IMG/VR virus record: IMGVR_UViG_3300045988_033017
Location: 54,699 to 118,698 of that record
Origin: a virus
Length of the DNA: 64,000 bases
Direction: 5' to 3' (one strand)
Shown piece by piece: positions 547 through 54,727 of the stretch. The position numbers were made by a program, and so were the translations under genes. Numbering within the stretch: the first letter of the stretch is position 1; each line of letters starts with the position of its first letter. The notes under the pieces are model-generated. The model was not told the DNA's origin. It made no database searches and saw only the letters and a list, made by a program, of their open reading frames with translations.

Positions 547-885
547 ATGATGCACTCAAGTCTATGGGGGGGGGTTCAGACCCTAGTTTTAACAACACAA
601 GATTTGATATATCCAGGTAGAAGTAGTAATATAGAGGTTAACAGTGCTGATAGTGCTGTAATGGAGATTGTGAAGTCTAATATGACAGACATGGTCCCAT
701 TTCAGTTACTGTATTATGGAGTATCTAATGGTGCGCCAACATGTATTAGTGTGACAATAATCGGAATTCCAATAGCTAATTTGTTCACATTATACGTAAA
801 TGTAAGTCAAGGTGGTTTACAGCGCTTTAGCATTAACAAAGGCTCCAATCAAAAGTGGATTGCTTCTACACTTAGTAATTCTTAA
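547..885 (+). CDS. hypothetical protein carrying a G9 tract at its N-terminus
   Basis: ORF track; G9 run at 566-574 encodes WGG; upstream ATG at 495 would join in frame with one G fewer. Confidence 0.4.
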   Translation: MMHSSLWGGVQTLVLTTQDLIYPGRSSNIEVNSADSAVMEIVKSNMTDMVPFQLLYYGVSNGAPTCISVTIIGIPIANLFTLYVNVSQGGLQRFSINKGSNQKWIASTLSNS

Positions 886-1614: not shown

Positions 1615-1787
1615 CAAGTATTTAAAATGACAAATAAAATTGCAACAGAACAATATTTAATTAATTTAGCTGGTGGAGGTACAAATACTCAACCAAGTGT
1701 GCCACTAGAGATAGAGTAGAGTTCTTCGGACTTGAAACTAACGATAATTACGCTAATAATCAGTTAGTTAAGGAAGAGGATATACAG

Positions 1788-2168
1788 TTGTCAACATTCC
1801 AGTATGACTTCAATATACATGTTTCAATAACTAACTCTGGGCTTACGTCTAAATCCTATGACTTTGTAGCAGATGTTTACATAGATGGAGTTCTAGATGG
1901 GTTTATAACAATTCCTAGGTCTGGAACTCTAGACTATCAAGGGGCAACTTTCTTTGACAGAAACTTCCACTTTAATTTACCAACTGATTTAACTAATGTC
2001 TCTAAATTATTGTTCACTGGATATTTCAGTACATACAGGGTGACTGTAGATGCAGATAGTGTAACAAATAACGCAGTATGCCAATCTGGGGTAACTACTG
2101 AAATACCAATAAATCAGGCATATATAGGAGGTGACACAGCTAATATTTCTATAAATGTAATTATATAA
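1788..2168 (+). CDS. hypothetical protein
   Basis: ORF track 126 aa, beta-rich composition. Confidence 0.5.
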   Translation: MSTFQYDFNIHVSITNSGLTSKSYDFVADVYIDGVLDGFITIPRSGTLDYQGATFFDRNFHFNLPTDLTNVSKLLFTGYFSTYRVTVDADSVTNNAVCQSGVTTEIPINQAYIGGDTANISINVII

Positions 2169-2410
2169 TGAAGTTTGTAACATTCTTAAAGCAAGTATTC
2201 ACATCCCACTCTGGCATATCATCTAAGAGACTCTGCGGAGTAGTAGGGTGGTTTGTCTGCTTGGGAGTGTTAATATACTGTGCAGTAAACGTAATTCAAG
2301 CCCCATTAATGATAGACACAGTCCTGTTGTGTTGTATGGGATTGCTTGGCATAGATTCAGTAACAGGAATATGGAAGAGATTCACCAATAACGATAAATC
2401 GAATAAATAA
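2168..2410 (+). CDS. small two-TM membrane protein
   Basis: 80 aa; two hydrophobic helices (VVGWFVCLGVLIYCAV, LLCCMGLLGI); stop/start overlaps the hydrolase-domain gene. Confidence 0.5.
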   Translation: MKFVTFLKQVFTSHSGISSKRLCGVVGWFVCLGVLIYCAVNVIQAPLMIDTVLLCCMGLLGIDSVTGIWKRFTNNDKSNK

Positions 2411-5400
2411 TGAAAGTAATACCTAAACTACAACAAGGAAACACCATAGAGTCCGATAATACTAAAGTAGTTAGGCCAGAAATTCATGAACCTATTAAAG
2501 CTAAACCTAAACAGTATTCCATTGTAGATTTAGGTGGAGAACCTTCTAATGATACCAGGTCAGCTGCTGAAAGAAATAGAGACTATTGGCATCCTATTAA
2601 AGGAGCTAAAGCCAGATTCAGGGCTTCTATGTCCAATGAGACTAATCCTCTAGTTGGAATAGAAAGAACTATACTTCCTTCAGCAGCTGGTGCTGCATTA
2701 GTAACAACTCCAGCCGCTGTTGTAGGAGGAGCTTTAGGTAATATGACTGTGGATAAGCTTACCGGGGGCTGGGGTAATTGGTTAGAAGATAAGACTGGCA
2801 TTCCGTCTGAAATTGGAGTTTATACTAATCCAGGAGCTTGGTATGGTGGTGCTAAAGGATATAAGATTGGAAAGGACAAGTTAATAACTAAATCAATTAA
2901 AGGTGACGCTGACTTAGCTTGGAATCCTATTAACAAGAATCATTGGATATTTAATAAGGAAGCAAGGACTCCTTCTAATATAGCAATGGCAACAGCTAAC
3001 AGAATTACTCCATTTCTATCTAAGGTAGAGAAATTACCATTAAAAGTGGCTGCTTATAAAGCTGCCAAGAGAACTAACGGTAATGCATCAGTAAGTTTGC
3101 AAGATATAAAAACAATGCCAGCCGACTACACAGGTTCTTCAATACTAGATGGAGGAAATTTAGAAGGCAGGAATCTATTAGCTAAATATATATTTGATGA
3201 GAATCCAGTAGTTAAAAGAATGTTCTTTAATAAAGCTACTAGTAATATCAAACCTATTAGCCGTAATGAAGCAAGGAGAGGATTTAGTCATGGGGATAGA
3301 TATGAGCAGCTTTATCCTGGAGTTCATAACAGAAGATACGAAATGAGTGCAGTAGTACCCTCTGGTAGACCTCTTAAGTTTGAGAATGTTACAAAGTTTA
3401 CTGATTATGCTGGAAAGAATCCAATCAGCAAGGTTGTTGGTAAGGAGACTGAACCAGTAATGCGTATGGGAGATAAAGAGTTCATGACCTTTAGGCAGCC
3501 AGGAACTGATTATATAGGTCCTATTGATGACGTTGCCGGACACTTGGTTAAGTTTCAAATGAACAAAGGTAAATTAAGACAGACTTCTCAAGATATGTGG
3601 AAATTTAATCCTGCTGACTATGCTAAGAGGTGGAATGATTCTCCTAATACCGCTAACCAAGTCAGGCTTATTAAACAAGCTGCATTAATGGATAAAGTAG
3701 GTCGTCCTTTCATATTACAGCAATCTAATCCTATATGGATTGAAGGTAAGTCTGTTAGAAATCCGGAATTGGTAACTATGGCACATGGTGGAAGATTTGA
3801 TTTTAAGAAGTCCCCTCTGCTAAAGAAACAAGAAGAGATTAACGGTAAGAGGGACATGCGCAAGAAGTTCATCAAATCAAGTCGCCCAACCTATAAGAAG
3901 CGAATCAAGAAAGCTCAACAAGGAATGAAGTTCGTAAGTTATAATCCAGTAAGTAATCCTACAATAGATTACACTGATATTACTAATCCTATTAATCCAT
4001 TCAGCGAATATAACTTTAATACAGTTTACGATAAACCAGAGGCTTTAGTAGTACCAGTAAGAGATACTGATGAAACTGATGTAGTAGCTAATAATCCTAT
4101 AGCAGAGCCAGTAATTAATAAGTCAGTAGCTAGTAAACCTGTTACCGATAAACCTGTTACTGCCAACTCAACTTGGAAGAGTCCATATACTAACAGAAAG
4201 CAATGGTCTACAGAACTTATTAATGCCTATAAGAAGGCAGGTATTACTAATGATAATGCAATTAGAATGTTATTAGCACAAGACGCATTAGAATCTAGTT
4301 GGGGTAAGTCTGCACAAGGTAAGTACAACTTTGGCAATTTAACTACTGGTAGTTCATGGAAAGGTGATTATGTAACTGGTAATGATAAGAATGCTAAAGG
4401 TGAAGCTATTAAGCAGAAGTTTAGGTCTTATAATTCTATGGATGAGTATGCAGCAGATAAGATACAATTCTTAAAGAGACTATATGACTTTGATGAGAAT
4501 GATGATATTAATAAGTTTGTAGCTAAGCTTACTGGTTCTAATAAAGGTAAGAGAAGATATGCAGAAGCTACTAATTATGCTAAAGTACTTACTGGAGTAT
4601 ATAATGGTATTCCTAAAGGTGAGAATGGTATGATTATTAAGTATCAGAATCCAGCTCAACCTATTAAATATATGGGAGGTTACGATAAGAGAGGTAACAT
4701 AGTATTGCCAGTTACTAATGAGAATGGTATGAATAATGTAACTTTACCAGAAGTAACAGTTACTCCTAGAAATATTAATCTAGCAGGAGCTGTAGATAGA
4801 GGAAGGAGAGAAGCCGCACCTTATGTTAGTACATTATTAACAGGTGCAATATTTGGACCATTATCAGTAGCAGGTGGATATGCAGGTAATGAAGCAGTTA
4901 ATAAGATAACTAATGTAGCTAGTAATGACAAATATAAAGACTGGGCTGATATGCTCTCTAAGACTACAGGAATGAATCCGGTAGTTGCAGATTTCTTTAA
5001 CATAGGTAATTTGGCAGGTGGATTTGGAATGCGTAACTTTGGACCTAGGTTAAAGCCAGTAAAAGATATGGCTGTTGGTGGTAATAAATGGGCTAGAGCT
5101 AGAGTAATTAGTAAGGCTATAGATAAAGGGACTCCTTCAGTTGAGCCATTGCCCAATAATGTAGGTTGGGGACCTAGACAATCCATACATGTAGTACATG
5201 ATAAGAATAGTGCTAGACTCCCGAAATTATACTTTCCAGAAAGGTGGGATGCTATTCATGAAGGCGCTCCTGAAGCTGGTATATGGTATCAAGGTAAATT
5301 TGGCAATCCAAGAACAGCAGCTAATCACTCTGTTCCAGGTAAGGCAGAGAAAGCGGCTAAGGCTAGAGAGAGATTTGCCAAGAGACCTTACAGAGTAGAA

Positions 5401-6168
5401 GGTGATTTAGAGTTAGAGAGACCAATAGTTACTGTAGGTGATGTACCTAACAGAGCAGCATTAGAACGAGCAGCTGATAAGATGAGTGCTGACGGGGTAA
5501 TCTTTAATAATGTATATGATAATGGATATTCTAATAACCAAGTAATCTTTAGTCTTAGAGATAACTTGAAGAATAGCACTATGACCCATAAGCCAACTGG
5601 TAAAATAGTTACTCCGACCGAGAACAATCCATATCCTAAGATAGGAACAGCTACTATAGTAAATGGTAAGTTTGAGCCTACTGGAGATATCTTTGGAGAA
5701 ATTCTCCCCACACAGGGAACTAAGCAGGCTGTGTTTCATCATAAAACTGACCCTACTAAGGTAGTCAAAGTGTCTAAAGTTCCAGAGGAAGGATATAGAA
5801 CTGTAGATGAGTTACGTAAAGCTATTAAGATGTCTAGAGCTAGGGATGAAGTGCCTAGTGCTGTACCCACAGAACTTCAAGGTTACTTACAAGGAGAAAA
5901 GGGAATGTATCCGGTGTTTACTCAGACCAAAGTAGGGCCTATTGAAAAGGAGAATGTGCTTGACGAGTTAGCAAAGATATTTGAGTCTAAAGGATGGACT
6001 AGGATTAATGATTCGTCCTATAAGAACTCTAAAATTACAGTCGGAGACATTACTACAGAGAATGTAGGTATGCTTAACGGTAAACCAGTCATCTTTGACC
6101 CAGAAGCTGCTTACAATAAAGACATTATTAGGGTATCTAACGCTAAATTTAAGAATAAGAACAATTAA
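2410..6168 (+). CDS. large virion-associated protein with glucosaminidase (FlgJ-like) peptidoglycan hydrolase domain; tape-measure or tail lysin candidate
   Basis: 1252 aa; motif LLAQDALESSWGKSAQGKYNFGNLTTG matches the glucosaminidase family signature (E-S-x-W-G ... N-x-F-G); size and lytic domain are typical of tail-associated lysins. Confidence 0.7.
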   Translation: MKVIPKLQQGNTIESDNTKVVRPEIHEPIKAKPKQYSIVDLGGEPSNDTRSAAERNRDYWHPIKGAKARFRASMSNETNPLVGIERTILPSAAGAALVTTPAAVVGGALGNMTVDKLTGGWGNWLEDKTGIPSEIGVYTNPGAWYGGAKGYKIGKDKLITKSIKGDADLAWNPINKNHWIFNKEARTPSNIAMATANRITPFLSKVEKLPLKVAAYKAAKRTNGNASVSLQDIKTMPADYTGSSILDGGNLEGRNLLAKYIFDENPVVKRMFFNKATSNIKPISRNEARRGFSHGDRYEQLYPGVHNRRYEMSAVVPSGRPLKFENVTKFTDYAGKNPISKVVGKETEPVMRMGDKEFMTFRQPGTDYIGPIDDVAGHLVKFQMNKGKLRQTSQDMWKFNPADYAKRWNDSPNTANQVRLIKQAALMDKVGRPFILQQSNPIWIEGKSVRNPELVTMAHGGRFDFKKSPLLKKQEEINGKRDMRKKFIKSSRPTYKKRIKKAQQGMKFVSYNPVSNPTIDYTDITNPINPFSEYNFNTVYDKPEALVVPVRDTDETDVVANNPIAEPVINKSVASKPVTDKPVTANSTWKSPYTNRKQWSTELINAYKKAGITNDNAIRMLLAQDALESSWGKSAQGKYNFGNLTTGSSWKGDYVTGNDKNAKGEAIKQKFRSYNSMDEYAADKIQFLKRLYDFDENDDINKFVAKLTGSNKGKRRYAEATNYAKVLTGVYNGIPKGENGMIIKYQNPAQPIKYMGGYDKRGNIVLPVTNENGMNNVTLPEVTVTPRNINLAGAVDRGRREAAPYVSTLLTGAIFGPLSVAGGYAGNEAVNKITNVASNDKYKDWADMLSKTTGMNPVVADFFNIGNLAGGFGMRNFGPRLKPVKDMAVGGNKWARARVISKAIDKGTPSVEPLPNNVGWGPRQSIHVVHDKNSARLPKLYFPERWDAIHEGAPEAGIWYQGKFGNPRTAANHSVPGKAEKAAKARERFAKRPYRVEGDLELERPIVTVGDVPNRAALERAADKMSADGVIFNNVYDNGYSNNQVIFSLRDNLKNSTMTHKPTGKIVTPTENNPYPKIGTATIVNGKFEPTGDIFGEILPTQGTKQAVFHHKTDPTKVVKVSKVPEEGYRTVDELRKAIKMSRARDEVPSAVPTELQGYLQGEKGMYPVFTQTKVGPIEKENVLDELAKIFESKGWTRINDSSYKNSKITVGDITTENVGMLNGKPVIFDPEAAYNKDIIRVSNAKFKNKNN

Positions 6169-6227: not shown

Positions 6228-6899
6228 TTGCAATGTAAAAGAATTAACAACATGAGTAAAATAGCAACAGAATTAGAAGCTAAGACTATGGGGGGGGGGA
6301 CTCTCTCGGTAATTGATAATAAGTGCTGTACTAAAGCTAGAGCACTTGAATTAGGATGTCAGATTAAAAGTGGATTTAGTTATACTGATAATCAGTTAGT
6401 GGAGTTAGAAGGTATAGAGGCAGCTATAACTGCTCCAAATGTAATCCTTCATTATGGTTGGCAGGATATGCCAATTAATAATATACAGCAATTTAGAGTA
6501 CGTTTCTCATTTGTTAATGAGAGTTCAGTGAATGGAGAGCCATTTAAGTATTCTGACAATACTATGTACTTTACAATTACTCCAAGATTAGAGCAAGGAG
6601 AACAAACGTACACTAAGACTTTAGCAAATCCTCTTAAATATTACTTAGAGAAATTAGCACCTTCTAACCAAGACCCATATAATACACCTGTTTGGATACG
6701 TTTTGAGGGATACATGATGCTTAGGCAAGTATCTCAAATTACATTAGCAGTAGATTCTCAATCTGAGAATTGGGCAGAAGGAGTAACATTTCCTTCATCT
6801 GGAAAGTGGGTCAAAATGAATAATTCTGGTAGAGTATTTAGATTTACTGGTGGGGAAATAGACCTAAACATAGAACTGTATACAGCGTCAGCGCAATGA
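6228..6899 (+). CDS. hypothetical protein with in-frame G10 tract
   Basis: ORF track 223 aa; G10 at 6290-6299 encodes MGGG. Confidence 0.5.
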   Translation: MQCKRINNMSKIATELEAKTMGGGTLSVIDNKCCTKARALELGCQIKSGFSYTDNQLVELEGIEAAITAPNVILHYGWQDMPINNIQQFRVRFSFVNESSVNGEPFKYSDNTMYFTITPRLEQGEQTYTKTLANPLKYYLEKLAPSNQDPYNTPVWIRFEGYMMLRQVSQITLAVDSQSENWAEGVTFPSSGKWVKMNNSGRVFRFTGGEIDLNIELYTASAQ

Positions 6900-7093
6900 T
6901 TAAAGTAACTGATAATAAAGAAGTAAAGGAAACAGTCCTAGCAGGACTTAAAAGGAATAAAGAGAAGTATGGTAAGAAGTACTGCCCATGCTCCTTAGTA
7001 AGAGATGAAAATACAGTATGTATGTGTAAAGAGTTTAGGGAAATGGAAGAAGGGACTTGCCATTGCCAACTTTATGTTAAAACTAAAGACTAA
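6896..7093 (+). CDS. Cys-rich protein resembling ferredoxin-thioredoxin reductase catalytic subunit (CPC...CxC...CHC)
   Basis: 65 aa; spacing CPC-X9-CMC-X11-CHC matches the FTR beta-subunit Fe-S/disulfide motif. Confidence 0.45.
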   Translation: MIKVTDNKEVKETVLAGLKRNKEKYGKKYCPCSLVRDENTVCMCKEFREMEEGTCHCQLYVKTKD

Positions 7094-8933: not shown

Positions 8934-9788
8934 ATGACAAATGAGGAGTATAATAAATGGCTAATCCTTTACTTTGATATGCAATCTATAAATTTACAGT
9001 TCAATTGTAATGATATAGCATCATCATTAAAGGCACAAAGAGATAAGATAAAACAATTCTGTATTGACTGTCTAACAGGAGTAAAACATCAGGCTGACAG
9101 CTTTCTATTTGACACAAATGCCTGCATATTTTCTACTTCCGAAACTAGAGGACTGTTGTTCTCATATGAAGAATATCCCATTCTTGATACTGATACTACT
9201 AAAGTAGTTGACGGAAAGTATCCCTTAGACTATGCTACTGAAATAGTAGAATCTAATTTGGATGATATCATTGACTATATAGTACAATCGGGAACAGAAA
9301 CATACAATGATAGAACCAGTAGAGGATTTGGGAATAGGTGGAGTCCTTATAATGAGGAGGAACGTAAACAAGTAATTAAACTGTTTAACTCTGGAACTTG
9401 GTATGATACATTTGGAGCTTTAAAGAATTTATATTATGAAAGAACTCCCAAAGGCTTAAGAATGTGTAACCTTACTGGTAAATCTTTACAAGATAATGTT
9501 CTAGGATATATAGAAGATATTATTTTGAATATAAAAGACCATTATGAAACATTTGCTGTTATTCCTAGAGGTAAATCTAAATTACAAGTTTATATGACAA
9601 TAAGCAATGGAACAAATGGAGCTGAAGGATGTATTATTAATTCTATGGAAGATGTTCTAAATGTGCTTAAAAACTTAAGGAAATATAAAGGAGTAAATTG
9701 GTCACAGCTACTGGAAGTTGGGATAGATAATGCAGATGATTTATATTGGTGGTACGTGACATTCTCTATAGACACTACAGCTATATAA
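8934..9788 (+). CDS. hypothetical protein
   Basis: ORF track 284 aa. Confidence 0.55.
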   Translation: MTNEEYNKWLILYFDMQSINLQFNCNDIASSLKAQRDKIKQFCIDCLTGVKHQADSFLFDTNACIFSTSETRGLLFSYEEYPILDTDTTKVVDGKYPLDYATEIVESNLDDIIDYIVQSGTETYNDRTSRGFGNRWSPYNEEERKQVIKLFNSGTWYDTFGALKNLYYERTPKGLRMCNLTGKSLQDNVLGYIEDIILNIKDHYETFAVIPRGKSKLQVYMTISNGTNGAEGCIINSMEDVLNVLKNLRKYKGVNWSQLLEVGIDNADDLYWWYVTFSIDTTAI

Positions 9789-9919
9789 TAAAATTGATAC
9801 CAGCCAGTAGATGCTAGGCACAAAGCCTAAGATAGTTTTTACATCTTCGTCTTGGTGGTCTACGCCAGTGCGCTCTGACGTATTCCCACTTACCGAGACG
9901 GAATCTTATTATAAACAAC

Positions 9920-9960
9920 AAAGCCCGAACTTAGTTTAATTACTAGGCTCGGGCTTTATT
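9920..9960. terminator. bidirectional rho-independent terminator between convergent genes
   Basis: Perfect 9-bp stem AAAGCCCGA/TCGGGCTTT with AT-rich flanks, between a + gene and a - gene. Confidence 0.6.
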
Positions 9961-9971
9961 ATATCAACCTG

Positions 9972-11056
9972 TTATGTATTAATTTTAATTACTTGTCTAG
10001 AATAGTCAGGCAAGTCAAGTATTTTATTACTTTGGTCAAATGTAGAAGCTGTATTCTGCAATAGGAGTCTTTTAGTTCCATTCGAACCAATTGCATACCA
10101 ATTTGAATCTACATATATTAAATCAGTAAGAGTATATTCACCTAGTGTAGATGTAGTCCAATTATTACCCCTATCTGTAGACACACTCTTCATATTATTT
10201 CCTATAAGCATAAATGTATTAGTCCCAGCTTCATTTACATACAATCCTTTAGTCAAACCTGTTAGTTGTGGTCTAGTGGTTGCAGCAGTCCATTGAGTTC
10301 CAGTTGGGTTAGTACTAACGTATGTATAATTACTTGTAGTGCTATATACTACACTTCTTGGTGAAGAATGAAACCCTTGTATTACTGCACTTGGTGTAAA
10401 CATTCCAGGAGTATAATAAGTAAGAGAATCTGGTACAGATGTAGCCAAGAAGGTATATATTCTAGCTCCTCCCTGATATGATGCCCCAACACAGCAGTAA
10501 TCATAAGGCCCAGTTGATATGCTACTGACTGGACCTACAACACTACGCTCCTTTACTGTACCGTCATCATACACTATAATAACATAGTTCTTATTGTCTC
10601 CTGCTGCTCCTTTATAAAATACCCAGCCAGTAGAGAATCTAGCCAAGTGAACATAAGCATAAGCTTTTACAGTATCTTTGTATTTTAATTCCCACTGTTT
10701 GGTAGACTGATTAACTACATACAATCCTCCAAGTATAGACAATGCTCCAATTGCTTCACCTTCTCCAGCTATGTATATAAAATCCTCATGGCCGTCTATA
10801 GCTGGAATTTGAGCATAGGTCCCACCGCCAGCAAAGTATAAACTACCTGTCTCCGTATTAATAAGGAATAAGTCTTTATTTACAACTATATCTTCTTCTT
10901 TAACTAATTGATTTGGCTGGTAGTTACTAGACGCAACTACGCTACCCCAGAGACTAACTATGGTTTGGTAGTGAGGACAATACCCCCCCCCTTCCCGTAA
11001 TCTATATTCTTACCTGTTAATTCGTTTAATTTACTTTGTGTTACTATTCTACTCAT
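9972..11056 (-). CDS. BNR/Asp-box repeat protein (putative receptor-binding or glycosidase-like); N-terminal 25 codons separated by a frameshift in a C9 tract
   Basis: ORF track body 9972..10742 contains the Asp-box STDRGNNWT and S/T/G/Y-rich beta-propeller composition. An ATG at 11056 with a 25-codon leader lies in a different frame; one extra C in the C9 run 10983-10991 fuses the leader and body into one protein of about 360 aa. Confidence 0.5.
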
Positions 11057-25926: not shown

Positions 25927-25998
25927 GCCCCATTACTTCAGTGGTAGAAGAGCAAATTCTAAACTTGTATGGCGTTGGTTCGAGTCCAACATGGGGCA
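25927..25998 (+). tRNA. tRNA with CTA anticodon (amber suppressor-like)
   Basis: Acceptor GCCCCAT/ATGGGGC, D-arm CTTC-AGTGGTA-GAAG, anticodon stem GCAAA/CTTGT, loop TTCTAAA gives CUA; T-arm GTTGG-TTCGAGT-CCAAC. Confidence 0.5.
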
Positions 25999-26000
25999 CT

Positions 26001-53039: not shown

Positions 53040-53312
53040 TTCTTATGTATGGTGATAGGTTATGGAATAGACATTCCAGCCAAAATATCACTAGGGGGGG
53101 GGGTGTAGGCTCTTCTTCGTTGCTCCTAGCAACACACCTAATGCCAATCCTTGGTATTATTGTTATCATCTATGATAACGGACTTTAGGCTACGTTATAT
53201 TTAATGTAGTGCTAATCGCGCAGAACGATATTCGTACTGCCGTTTAGGGTCAAATTCAGATTAGTTATTAGATTATTCTTTACTTCTAATGAGGTAAGGT
53301 CTACTCTAGTGA

Positions 53313-54550: not shown

Positions 54551-54727
54551 ATGGCTTCACGTAAGAAAGGTACGGCACCTCATAAGCCGAAGAAGGTGTA
54601 TGAATTTGTTAAGTTAATGAATTGTGCAAGGTGTGGTAGAGATACTACTCACACGCTGTTCGATTATGACAACAGGCTTTATAAATGTAATGTCTGTGGG
54701 GCAGTTTATACCAAACGTGGTAAATAA
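54551..54727 (+). CDS. zinc-ribbon small protein (58 aa), not in ORF track
   Basis: ATG at 54551; MASRKKGTAPHKPKKVYEFVKLMNCARCGRDTTHTLFDYDNRLYKCNVCGAVYTKRGK; two CxxC pairs. Confidence 0.4.
   Translation: MASRKKGTAPHKPKKVYEFVKLMNCARCGRDTTHTLFDYDNRLYKCNVCGAVYTKRGK

Follow-up and report, generated by a model that had tools for sequence, protein, structure and literature searches.

The 64,000 nucleotide (nt) stretch of viral DNA analyzed here (positions 54,699 to 118,698 of IMG/VR virus record IMGVR_UViG_3300045988_033017, hereafter the window) carries on its minus strand a gene, which we call T4 (9972-11056), that is split between two reading frames at a run of nine identical bases. An ATG at 11056 starts a leader of 25 codons (MSRIVTQSKLNELTGKNIDYGKGGG) whose last codons lie in this run, which occupies positions 10983-10991 and reads C9 on the plus strand and G9 on the coding strand. 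The leader frame terminates at a TAG codon (10958-10960), giving an open reading frame (ORF) of 32 amino acids (aa) that spans 10958-11056 (MSRIVTQSKLNELTGKNIDYGKGGGIVLTTKP). The remaining part of the gene, its body (9972-10982), comprises 336 codons in a different frame and ends with a TAA codon at 9972-9974; this frame is open from about 11012, and the earliest start listed in it is a TTG at 10742, from which 256 aa could be made. The leader and body frames overlap only around the tract, and one additional G joins them into an ORF of 361 aa with the junction ...DYGKGGGYCPHYQ..., in which the G9 run occupies codons 22-25. An earlier note, made by reading the sequence alone, had described a body frame that has no ATG and begins with the TTG, a 25-codon leader behind the ATG at 11056 in another frame, and the meeting of the two frames at the C9 run, where one added C would give a protein of about 360 aa; frame translation confirmed each of these points.

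The tract codes for a Gly-Gly-Gly linker, and leader and body are in frame when its length is 3n+1 (G7, G10). Alleles that connect the two frames are called ON below and all others OFF, and with G9 the window is OFF. Downstream of the linker, residues 26-58 finish an N-terminal module (YCPHYQ...NQLVKEEDI) that T4 shares with other genes of the window (the N-module), and residues from about 90 to 350 form a predicted propeller.

Intact homologs of the split gene

A protein search with the fused sequence found 337 homologs, most of them 355-367 aa long and 84-95% identical, with 100% query coverage across the junction. The intact homologs P0001-P0120 share an identical DYGKGGGYCPHYQ junction, and the intact form of the 361-aa protein is present in hundreds of human-gut metagenome contigs; to judge from these matches, the fused protein is real. 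The same search returned matches of 337-345 aa that start inside the tract (MGGGHCP..., MGRGGYCP...) and are gene calls on contigs whose leader is out of frame. Clusters at 90% identity contain both 361-aa and 254/256-aa forms, and the exact 256-aa body ORF of the window occurs on three contigs under three sources (MGnify, Logan, and ENA). In a collection of 15 billion proteins the exact 32-aa leader ORF of the window is found on 33 contigs, and the OFF-state leader ORFs overall occur on 385, 193, 178, 82, 66, and 33 contigs, those on 66, 193, and 385 contigs being siblings of the window's own. A profile search with the N-module likewise returned mostly short OFF-state leader ORFs rather than annotated full-length proteins. 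The DNA of the locus has no match among GenBank phages; an unannotated relative, MT835470.1, was found there by protein search. These results carry a warning for annotation: such genes are routinely entered in public databases either as truncated proteins (254/256, 166, or 143 aa) or as short leaders (29-33 aa).

Tract length and frame among relatives

The locus was surveyed at the DNA level in 12 IMG/VR loci and 65 human-gut metagenome loci, and the tract site could be scored in 55 of these relatives. The longest uninterrupted G run ranges from 4 to 11 bases: G9 is found in 17 relatives, G8 in 13, G6 in nine, G10 in six, G7 in five, G5 and G4 in two each, and G11 in one. The resulting frame is OFF in 30 of the 55 and ON in 25. 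The in-frame alleles include G10 and G7 as well as AAAG9, AAAAG8, G9TT, and G8TG, in which changes in neighboring bases compensate for the length of the run, and some interrupted alleles appear "locked" in one state (GGGGGGAGGG ON; GGGGGGTGG and GGGGGGGAG OFF).

Tract length differs even between very similar genes, in 6 of 13 pairs that differ by <1% over 1,067 nt and in 32 of 41 pairs at 1-2% divergence. Six contigs (L085-L090) that encode an identical 284-aa neighboring protein and share 99.1-99.9% identity with the window across 6.8 kb show the same behavior both at T4 and at T3, a second tract-bearing gene described below. The window and L085 have G10 in T3 and G9 in T4; L086 combines G11 with G9; L087 has G9 in T3 and, in T4, G9 plus one inserted base (T) that restores the frame and the 361-aa product; and L088 has G8 in both. 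In L089 the T3 tract was not read and the T4 tract is G8, and in L090 the T3 tract is G10 and the contig ends before T4. The T3 and T4 tract lengths are thus combined differently from genome to genome among these close relatives, and the comparison as a whole strongly supports rapid change of tract length.

Homopolymers are prone to misreading, and it could be argued that the true tract is always G10, that T4 is an ordinary ORF, and that the other lengths are sequencing or assembly miscalls. Runs of G9-10 do increase the indel error, many of the relatives have low coverage, and four metagenome contigs (L029, L032, L037, and L052) end at or within the tract, about 10 times the expectation (Poisson p ~8e-4), one of them with an adapter remnant. 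However, more than half of the 55 assemblies, which are independent and mostly Illumina-based, are out of frame, and their tract lengths spread over 4-11 rather than lying within one base of a single value. Contigs of high coverage differ as well, L030 (18.9x) being OFF and L014 (23.6x) ON by way of AAAG9, and OFF alleles with intact bodies also occur at short interrupted runs (G6TGG, G7AG), which are not prone to error. Moreover, neighboring changes that compensate for the run exist (AAAG9, G9TT, and the inserted T of L087), the exact OFF-state leader and body ORFs recur in the 33 and three contigs mentioned above, and the presence of five G9-10 runs in the window with none of 6-8 and a rare GGG codon (see below) is a property of the sequence and not of errors in it. 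We regard an artifact as very unlikely. As to the broken contigs, L032 starts with the remnant of an Illumina adapter followed by sequence from just downstream of the tract, a place at which assemblers tend to break.

The frequent OFF alleles might instead mark a dispensable gene in decay, in which the tract would be a mutational weak point, the OFF copies young pseudogenes, and switching of no adaptive value. Such a course would account for the alleles that are locked OFF by interruptions (L035, L043, L044, and L055), and T2b, a neighboring paralog of the N-module, is frameshifted in the window outside any tract. On the other hand, 27 of the 28 OFF copies that are readable to the end have bodies with no other lesion over about 335 codons, and the ratio of nonsynonymous to synonymous substitution rates (dN/dS, Nei-Gojobori) is alike in the two states, 0.34 between OFF genes, 0.40 between ON genes, and 0.36 in mixed pairs. 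Because the bodies are intact and dN/dS is equal in both states, the OFF copies do not look like decaying pseudogenes; purifying selection on OFF bodies is strongly supported by these values, and decay is a highly improbable explanation of the alleles.

A third explanation would leave the DNA stably at G9 and place the event in expression, with a -1 ribosomal frameshift or RNA polymerase slippage holding the long product at a constant low proportion relative to the short one. More relatives carry G9 than any other length (17 of 55), and the zero frame of this allele, AAG GGG GGG GGT, holds a perfect X XXY YYZ heptamer from which a -1 shift reaches the body frame. Against this, there is no fixed out-of-frame arrangement among the relatives: G7, G8, G9, G10, and G11 all occur, G8 would need a +1 or -2 shift, and in-frame alleles are common, some of them locked by interruptions. 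No frameshift-stimulating RNA structure was found downstream of the tract (minimum free energy z = -1.0), which also counts against recoding, as does the fact that efficient RNA polymerase slippage has been documented mainly for A/T runs. Programmed recoding as the sole explanation is therefore quite unlikely, and the slippage-dependent expression that the earlier note had offered beside phase variation is not needed to account for the locus; low-level -1 slippage on G GGG GGG is possible and may add leaky expression on top of a switch in the DNA. Recoding of the leader stop codon was also considered, given the suppressor-type tRNA (Sup-CTA) in the window, and rejected: read-through of the TAG meets further stops within a few codons and never enters the body frame, so it cannot join leader and body.

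Some relatives differ just upstream of the tract. In those with GATTATGGGAAG (for example L003 and L026; protein P0118) codon 20 is TAT, which creates an out-of-frame ATG 9 nt before the tract, and with a G8 allele the series ATG-GGA-AGG-GGG-GGG-TAT falls in the body frame. In such strains the G8 allele could be a third state in which a leaderless protein is made from the internal ATG. Codon 20 of the window is TAC, so it has no internal ATG.

A set of polyG tracts in the window

The T4 tract is one of five G or C runs of 9-10 bases in the window (566-574, 1239-1247, 6290-6299, 10983-10991, and 53094-53103), where base composition predicts 0.05 runs of at least nine. No G or C runs of 6-8 are present, although about 5.7 would be expected (both bases combined), and runs of G5 are likewise too few (3 observed versus 17.8 expected). 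In the four tracts that lie in genes it is always the coding strand that carries the G's; the fifth has them on the plus strand. GGG makes up 5.4% of the glycine codons in 34 other ORFs, and other glycine runs are coded by GGT or GGA. In 117 kb of MT835470.1, a stretch that includes the TerL-portal block, the only G/C runs of at least six are the tracts of T1 and T2. The T4 tract is kept across lineages down to 77-80% protein identity, and this retention, the rarity of the GGG codon, and the recurrence of such tracts in T1, T2, and T3 argue for selection on the homopolymer itself; the same three observations speak against the decay of a dispensable gene.

The other three tract-bearing genes lie on the plus strand near the left end of the window. 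T1 (495-885) has a leader that starts with ATG 495 and a G9 tract at 566-574; in the window this leader does not read into the body frame, which has an ATG of its own at 547. With G9 the body frame is open for 112 aa from ATG 547 despite the out-of-frame 495 leader (495-620), so T1 may have two alternative N-termini according to tract length. T2 (1120-1614; 164 aa; G9 at 1239-1247) and T3 (6252-6899; 215 aa, MSKIATELEAKTMGGG...; G10 at 6290-6299) are both ON in the window. Among the relatives the T1 tract varies from G6 to G11 (11 in frame, 9 out), that of T2 from G5 to G10 (8 ON, 12 OFF, with intact bodies in 20 of 20), and that of T3 from G6 to G10 (9 ON, 20 OFF). The bodies of T1-T3 are nearly always intact, and the ON/OFF combinations vary by contig. 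At the protein level, full-length T3 clusters (1150 + 1636 members) and truncated ones (1253, 526, and 1337 members) are about equally populous. Directly after T3 lies a 65-aa cysteine-rich ORF (6896-7093) whose relatives carry a precomputed Pfam match to FeThRed_B (PF02943); some gene calls merge it with a truncated T3.

T2b (1627-2168, plus strand) is a paralog that carries the N-module and has no tract; it is without a slippery run because its three glycines are coded by GGTGGAGGT. The gene is intact in GenBank MT835470.1 (180 aa) and frameshifted in the window by a deletion of 1 nt near 1687 (ACTCCAACC to ACTCAACC relative to MT835470.1), outside any homopolymer.

The fifth tract, T5 (G10, 53094-53103, plus strand), is outside any long ORF. 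Its length among relatives spans G8-10, with G8 or G9 in those from IMG/VR, and one relative (L083) carries unrelated sequence at the site. The surrounding region (53045-53188) has no long ORF, and translation in its three frames yields peptides of about 20, 42, or 47 aa; T5 could be a regulatory or small-protein switch.

Shared N-module and exchangeable C-terminal domains

T2b, T3, and T4 share the N-module of about 58 aa (M-S-x-K-I-[AV]-T-[EQ]...L..G-G-G...KC.TK...G...Y..NQLVKEEDI), and the C-terminal domains behind it are unrelated to each other in the three proteins. T1 and T2 have an NKC.TK motif before the three glycines, and the polyG-tract proteins have in common a motif [NK][KR]C.T[KT] beside them. 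In T2, T3, and T4 each tract codes for a Gly3 linker, and the N-terminal motif that the proteins share lies beside it. In the structure model of the T4 product the linker (residues 22-24) has a predicted local distance difference test (pLDDT) score <50, and in-frame changes in tract length would be tolerated because the glycines coded by the run form a flexible linker.

The N-module behaves as a part that can be joined to different domains. In T3 it is nearly invariant and the C-terminal beta-sandwich falls to 25-50% identity; the latter has only weak matches to pilins or adhesins. The same N-module also occurs in front of the propeller, of beta-sandwiches, and of other domains (P0145, P0148, P0159, and P0181). 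P0148 consists of the T4 N-module and the T2b C-terminal domain, P0181 is the T4 leader fused to the T3 body exactly at GGG, and in P0145 and P0159 the N-module is joined to other domains at NQLVKEEDI. Two propeller homologs (P0123 and P0125) have a T2b-like N-module and no polyG. The chimeric proteins suggest cassette shuffling, although chimeric assembly is possible for single contigs, and the tract and the conserved NQLVKEEDI joint may double as recombination points for such swapping.

Fold and candidate function of the T4 product

Residues from about 90 to 350 of the T4 product are modeled as a seven-bladed beta-propeller with one canonical SxDxGxxW Asp-box (STDRGNNW). The earlier note had proposed a BNR/Asp-box protein, and of this proposal the Asp-box and the beta-propeller stand, while membership in the BNR/sialidase family does not: a Pfam search of the fused protein gave no BNR or other match at E<=1, there is a single Asp-box, and the fold is that of a generic seven-bladed propeller. 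A PHROG search of T1-T4 gave no match, and Pfam and PHROG searches of T1, T2, T2b, T3, and the small neighboring genes gave nothing usable. The propeller resembles sialidase-type BNR/Asp-box propellers in being all-beta with SxDxGxxW in a blade, and its blades have weak sequence similarity to Asp-box-bearing blades of the phage proteins P0161 (912 aa, eight Asp-box blades) and P0163. The C-terminal region of P0163, not its blades, matches PHROG 11393 ("tail fiber protein"), and weak fold matches in BFVD include tail-fiber and structural proteins.

The most likely role of the T4 product, a putative one, is that of an optional accessory protein on the virion surface or in host recognition. Its conserved N-terminal module and exchangeable C-terminal domains are those of phage receptor-binding proteins, and it is this modular architecture together with the weak fold and sequence links to tail-fiber proteins that makes receptor binding the favored label; we put it forward as a tentative candidate role, with the odds somewhat against it.

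Just 3' of the T4 stop codon, at 9915-9962, lies a hairpin (minus strand) followed by a U-rich stretch. Its predicted folding energy is -27.2 kcal/mol (z = -5.9), and 0 of 200 shuffled sequences fold equally well. It is likely to be an intrinsic, bidirectional terminator that serves the convergent genes 8934-9788 (plus strand) and T4 (minus strand). The T1-T3 cluster flanks a gene for a 1252-aa polyvalent protein (2410-6168, between T2b and T3). This protein contains a glucosaminidase domain (PF01832), matches Kinase-PolyVal weakly, and is probably a virion protein that is injected.

The phage and its host

The window has a GC content of about 37% and contains 29 tRNA genes including Sup-CTA. 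The amber-suppressor-type tRNA lies at 25927-25999, has the anticodon CTA, and is named "Pyl" by ARAGORN; the ORFs of the window look normal under the standard code. A Shine-Dalgarno motif precedes 1 of 38 genes. The relatives are human-gut contigs of about 175-188 kb, the named matches of MT835470.1 TerL and of the window's DnaB-like helicase are crAss-like phages at about 30% identity, and one NCBI record has the leader ORF under the label "Crassvirales sp." One Zeta crAss-like clade in Table 1 of PMC12386605 has genomes of 172-188 kb with 27-29 tRNAs and a GC content of about 36.8%, and the same clade is described there as having Sup-CTA without suppression, Bacteroides as predicted host, and no diversity-generating retroelement (DGR). 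The scarcity of Shine-Dalgarno motifs in the window agrees with that table as well. The hallmark-gene matches and genome traits fit a distant crAss-like phage of Zeta type with a genome of about 180 kb, and its host is probably Bacteroides. In addition, a 355-aa ORF at 36796-37863 matches PHROG 1211 (adenylosuccinate-synthetase-like, "2-aminooxy adenylosuccinate synthetase"; E 2e-46); the protein may be PurZ-like, which would hint at a modified-base (2-aminoadenine) pathway.

A probable contingency locus

The G9 run of T4 is most probably a slipped-strand contingency locus, that is, a hypermutable homopolymer early in a coding sequence, which is OFF in the window. A long run lies near the 5' end of the coding sequence, its length is polymorphic in steps of single bases, the frame toggles in front of an intact body that is under selection, and the run is maintained against base composition and codon bias. 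The comparative data, namely the variable tract, the intact and selected bodies, and the four other tracts, lend strong support to the earlier note's idea of on/off switching by a hypermutable homopolymer. Population-genomic support for tract switching appears unusually broad.

In the proposed mechanism, nascent and template strands would misalign within the run during replication, and a G would be gained or lost. Lengths of 3n+1 (G10, G7) would connect the leader to the body and give the protein of about 360 aa, and other lengths (G8, G9, G11) would end translation after 32-33 codons. From the differences among contigs we infer slipped-strand mispairing as the cause, as well as reversibility and heterogeneity within populations. 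At least four genes with 5' coding polyG tracts, plus the fifth tract outside a long ORF, would act as a set, and if each tract switches independently, a phage population would carry many ON/OFF combinations.

Several points weigh against this interpretation. The evidence compares assemblies with one another, and heterogeneity within a population and reversibility are expectations drawn from it. PolyG runs are error-prone in sequencing, many of the contigs have 2-7x coverage, and the four contigs broken at the tract, an indirect hint of switching within a population, could reflect poor reads as well as true heterogeneity. The ON fraction, about 41% when the four loci are pooled, is near the one third expected from a random walk, which points to little selection for either state, and noise could equally produce such a fraction. 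With regard to receptor binding, the gene has no Pfam or PHROG match, T4 ends a small minus-strand island of small unknown genes outside the tail module, and the T1-T3 cluster lies at a divergent junction beside the exonuclease/TerL/portal end of the structural block and not among tail genes.

A broader and more speculative possibility, which we consider doubtful though worth stating, is that an abundant, Bacteroides-infecting Zeta crAss-like clade that lacks DGRs runs a combinatorial "phasotype" switchboard in which leader-polyG-cassette genes toggle independently. Each burst would then yield virions with differing sets of accessory host-recognition proteins. If the contingency-locus interpretation of T4 is correct, genes of a widespread human-gut crAss-like lineage are switched ON and OFF at random in the commensal gut virome, which would offer a mechanism for the long-term coexistence of phages with Bacteroides hosts that have phase-variable surfaces.

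Comparison with known systems

The use of homopolymer slippage for phase variation is classic in bacteria. In the contingency loci of Campylobacter, Neisseria, and Haemophilus surface genes, polyG or polyC tracts change length by slipped-strand mispairing, and the combined states of several loci are known as "phasotypes" (PMC10877375; PMC6625227). The tracts described here resemble them in the position of the homopolymer near the 5' end of the ORF, in ON/OFF control by frame, and in the independent switching of several loci, but they are borne by a virus and presumably replicated by the phage's own polymerase. We know of no link between tracts of the T4 type and a mismatch-repair-deficient host.

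The closest precedent among phages is the Campylobacter jejuni Fletchervirus (Sorensen et al. 2021, Cell Rep 35:109214), where, in the passages of PMC10579305 and PMC11959909 that describe it, changes in polyG length lead to phase-variable expression and to phenotypically mixed phage populations, with switching shown experimentally. Going by those descriptions, the two systems share polyG runs inside phage genes, several tracts per genome, and a proposed pay-off in coping with variable host surfaces. They differ in that Fletchervirus is a Campylobacter myovirus, whereas the phage studied here is a distant crAss-like phage of human-gut Bacteroidota with about 37% GC, and in that switching and phenotype were experimental there, as those papers relate it, and are inferred from metagenomes alone here. 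A possible further difference is that the T2, T3, and T4 tracts code for a Gly3 linker and belong to clustered, related genes whose C-terminal cassettes can be exchanged.

The next closest are the contingency loci of phages T2 and T4 (not to be confused with the genes so named here), in which coding simple-sequence repeats undergo reversible +/-1 frameshifts at high frequency, read by the authors of the preprint as bet-hedging (Gomez, Barrick and Waters, bioRxiv 10.1101/2025.10.21.683753). Those loci are mostly A runs of at least six across all gene classes, with mutant frequencies of about 1e-3, whereas the window has five long G9-10 runs in sequence otherwise cleared of G/C runs of 6-8. These runs are gathered mainly in a single gene cluster, and in the consensus sequences of different samples ON and OFF alleles stand near 40:60.

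Other Zeta crAss-like phages have DGRs that target tail-fiber genes (PMC12386605). Both arrangements would be dedicated to the diversification of accessory or host-recognition proteins within the same phage group, but DGRs rewrite residues of a variable region, whereas the polyG tracts switch whole proteins on or off. Since the matching clade in PMC12386605 is listed without a DGR, the tracts may stand in for one there.

Our literature searches turned up no description of polyG tracts in crAss-like phages or in other phages of the commensal gut; a Nature 2025 paper mentions polyG tracts merely as a possibility, and a 2025 review calls phage phase variation in Fletchervirus "an exceptional case" (PMC11959909). 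Homopolymer phase variation in phages is known experimentally only from Fletchervirus, to which the 2025 preprint adds A runs in T-even phages. If the switchboard is real, no contingency-locus system would have been described before it in phages that infect commensal gut bacteria. The design of the present arrangement is distinctive, in that the tract lies inside a shared N-terminal region of related genes that have exchangeable C-terminal domains.

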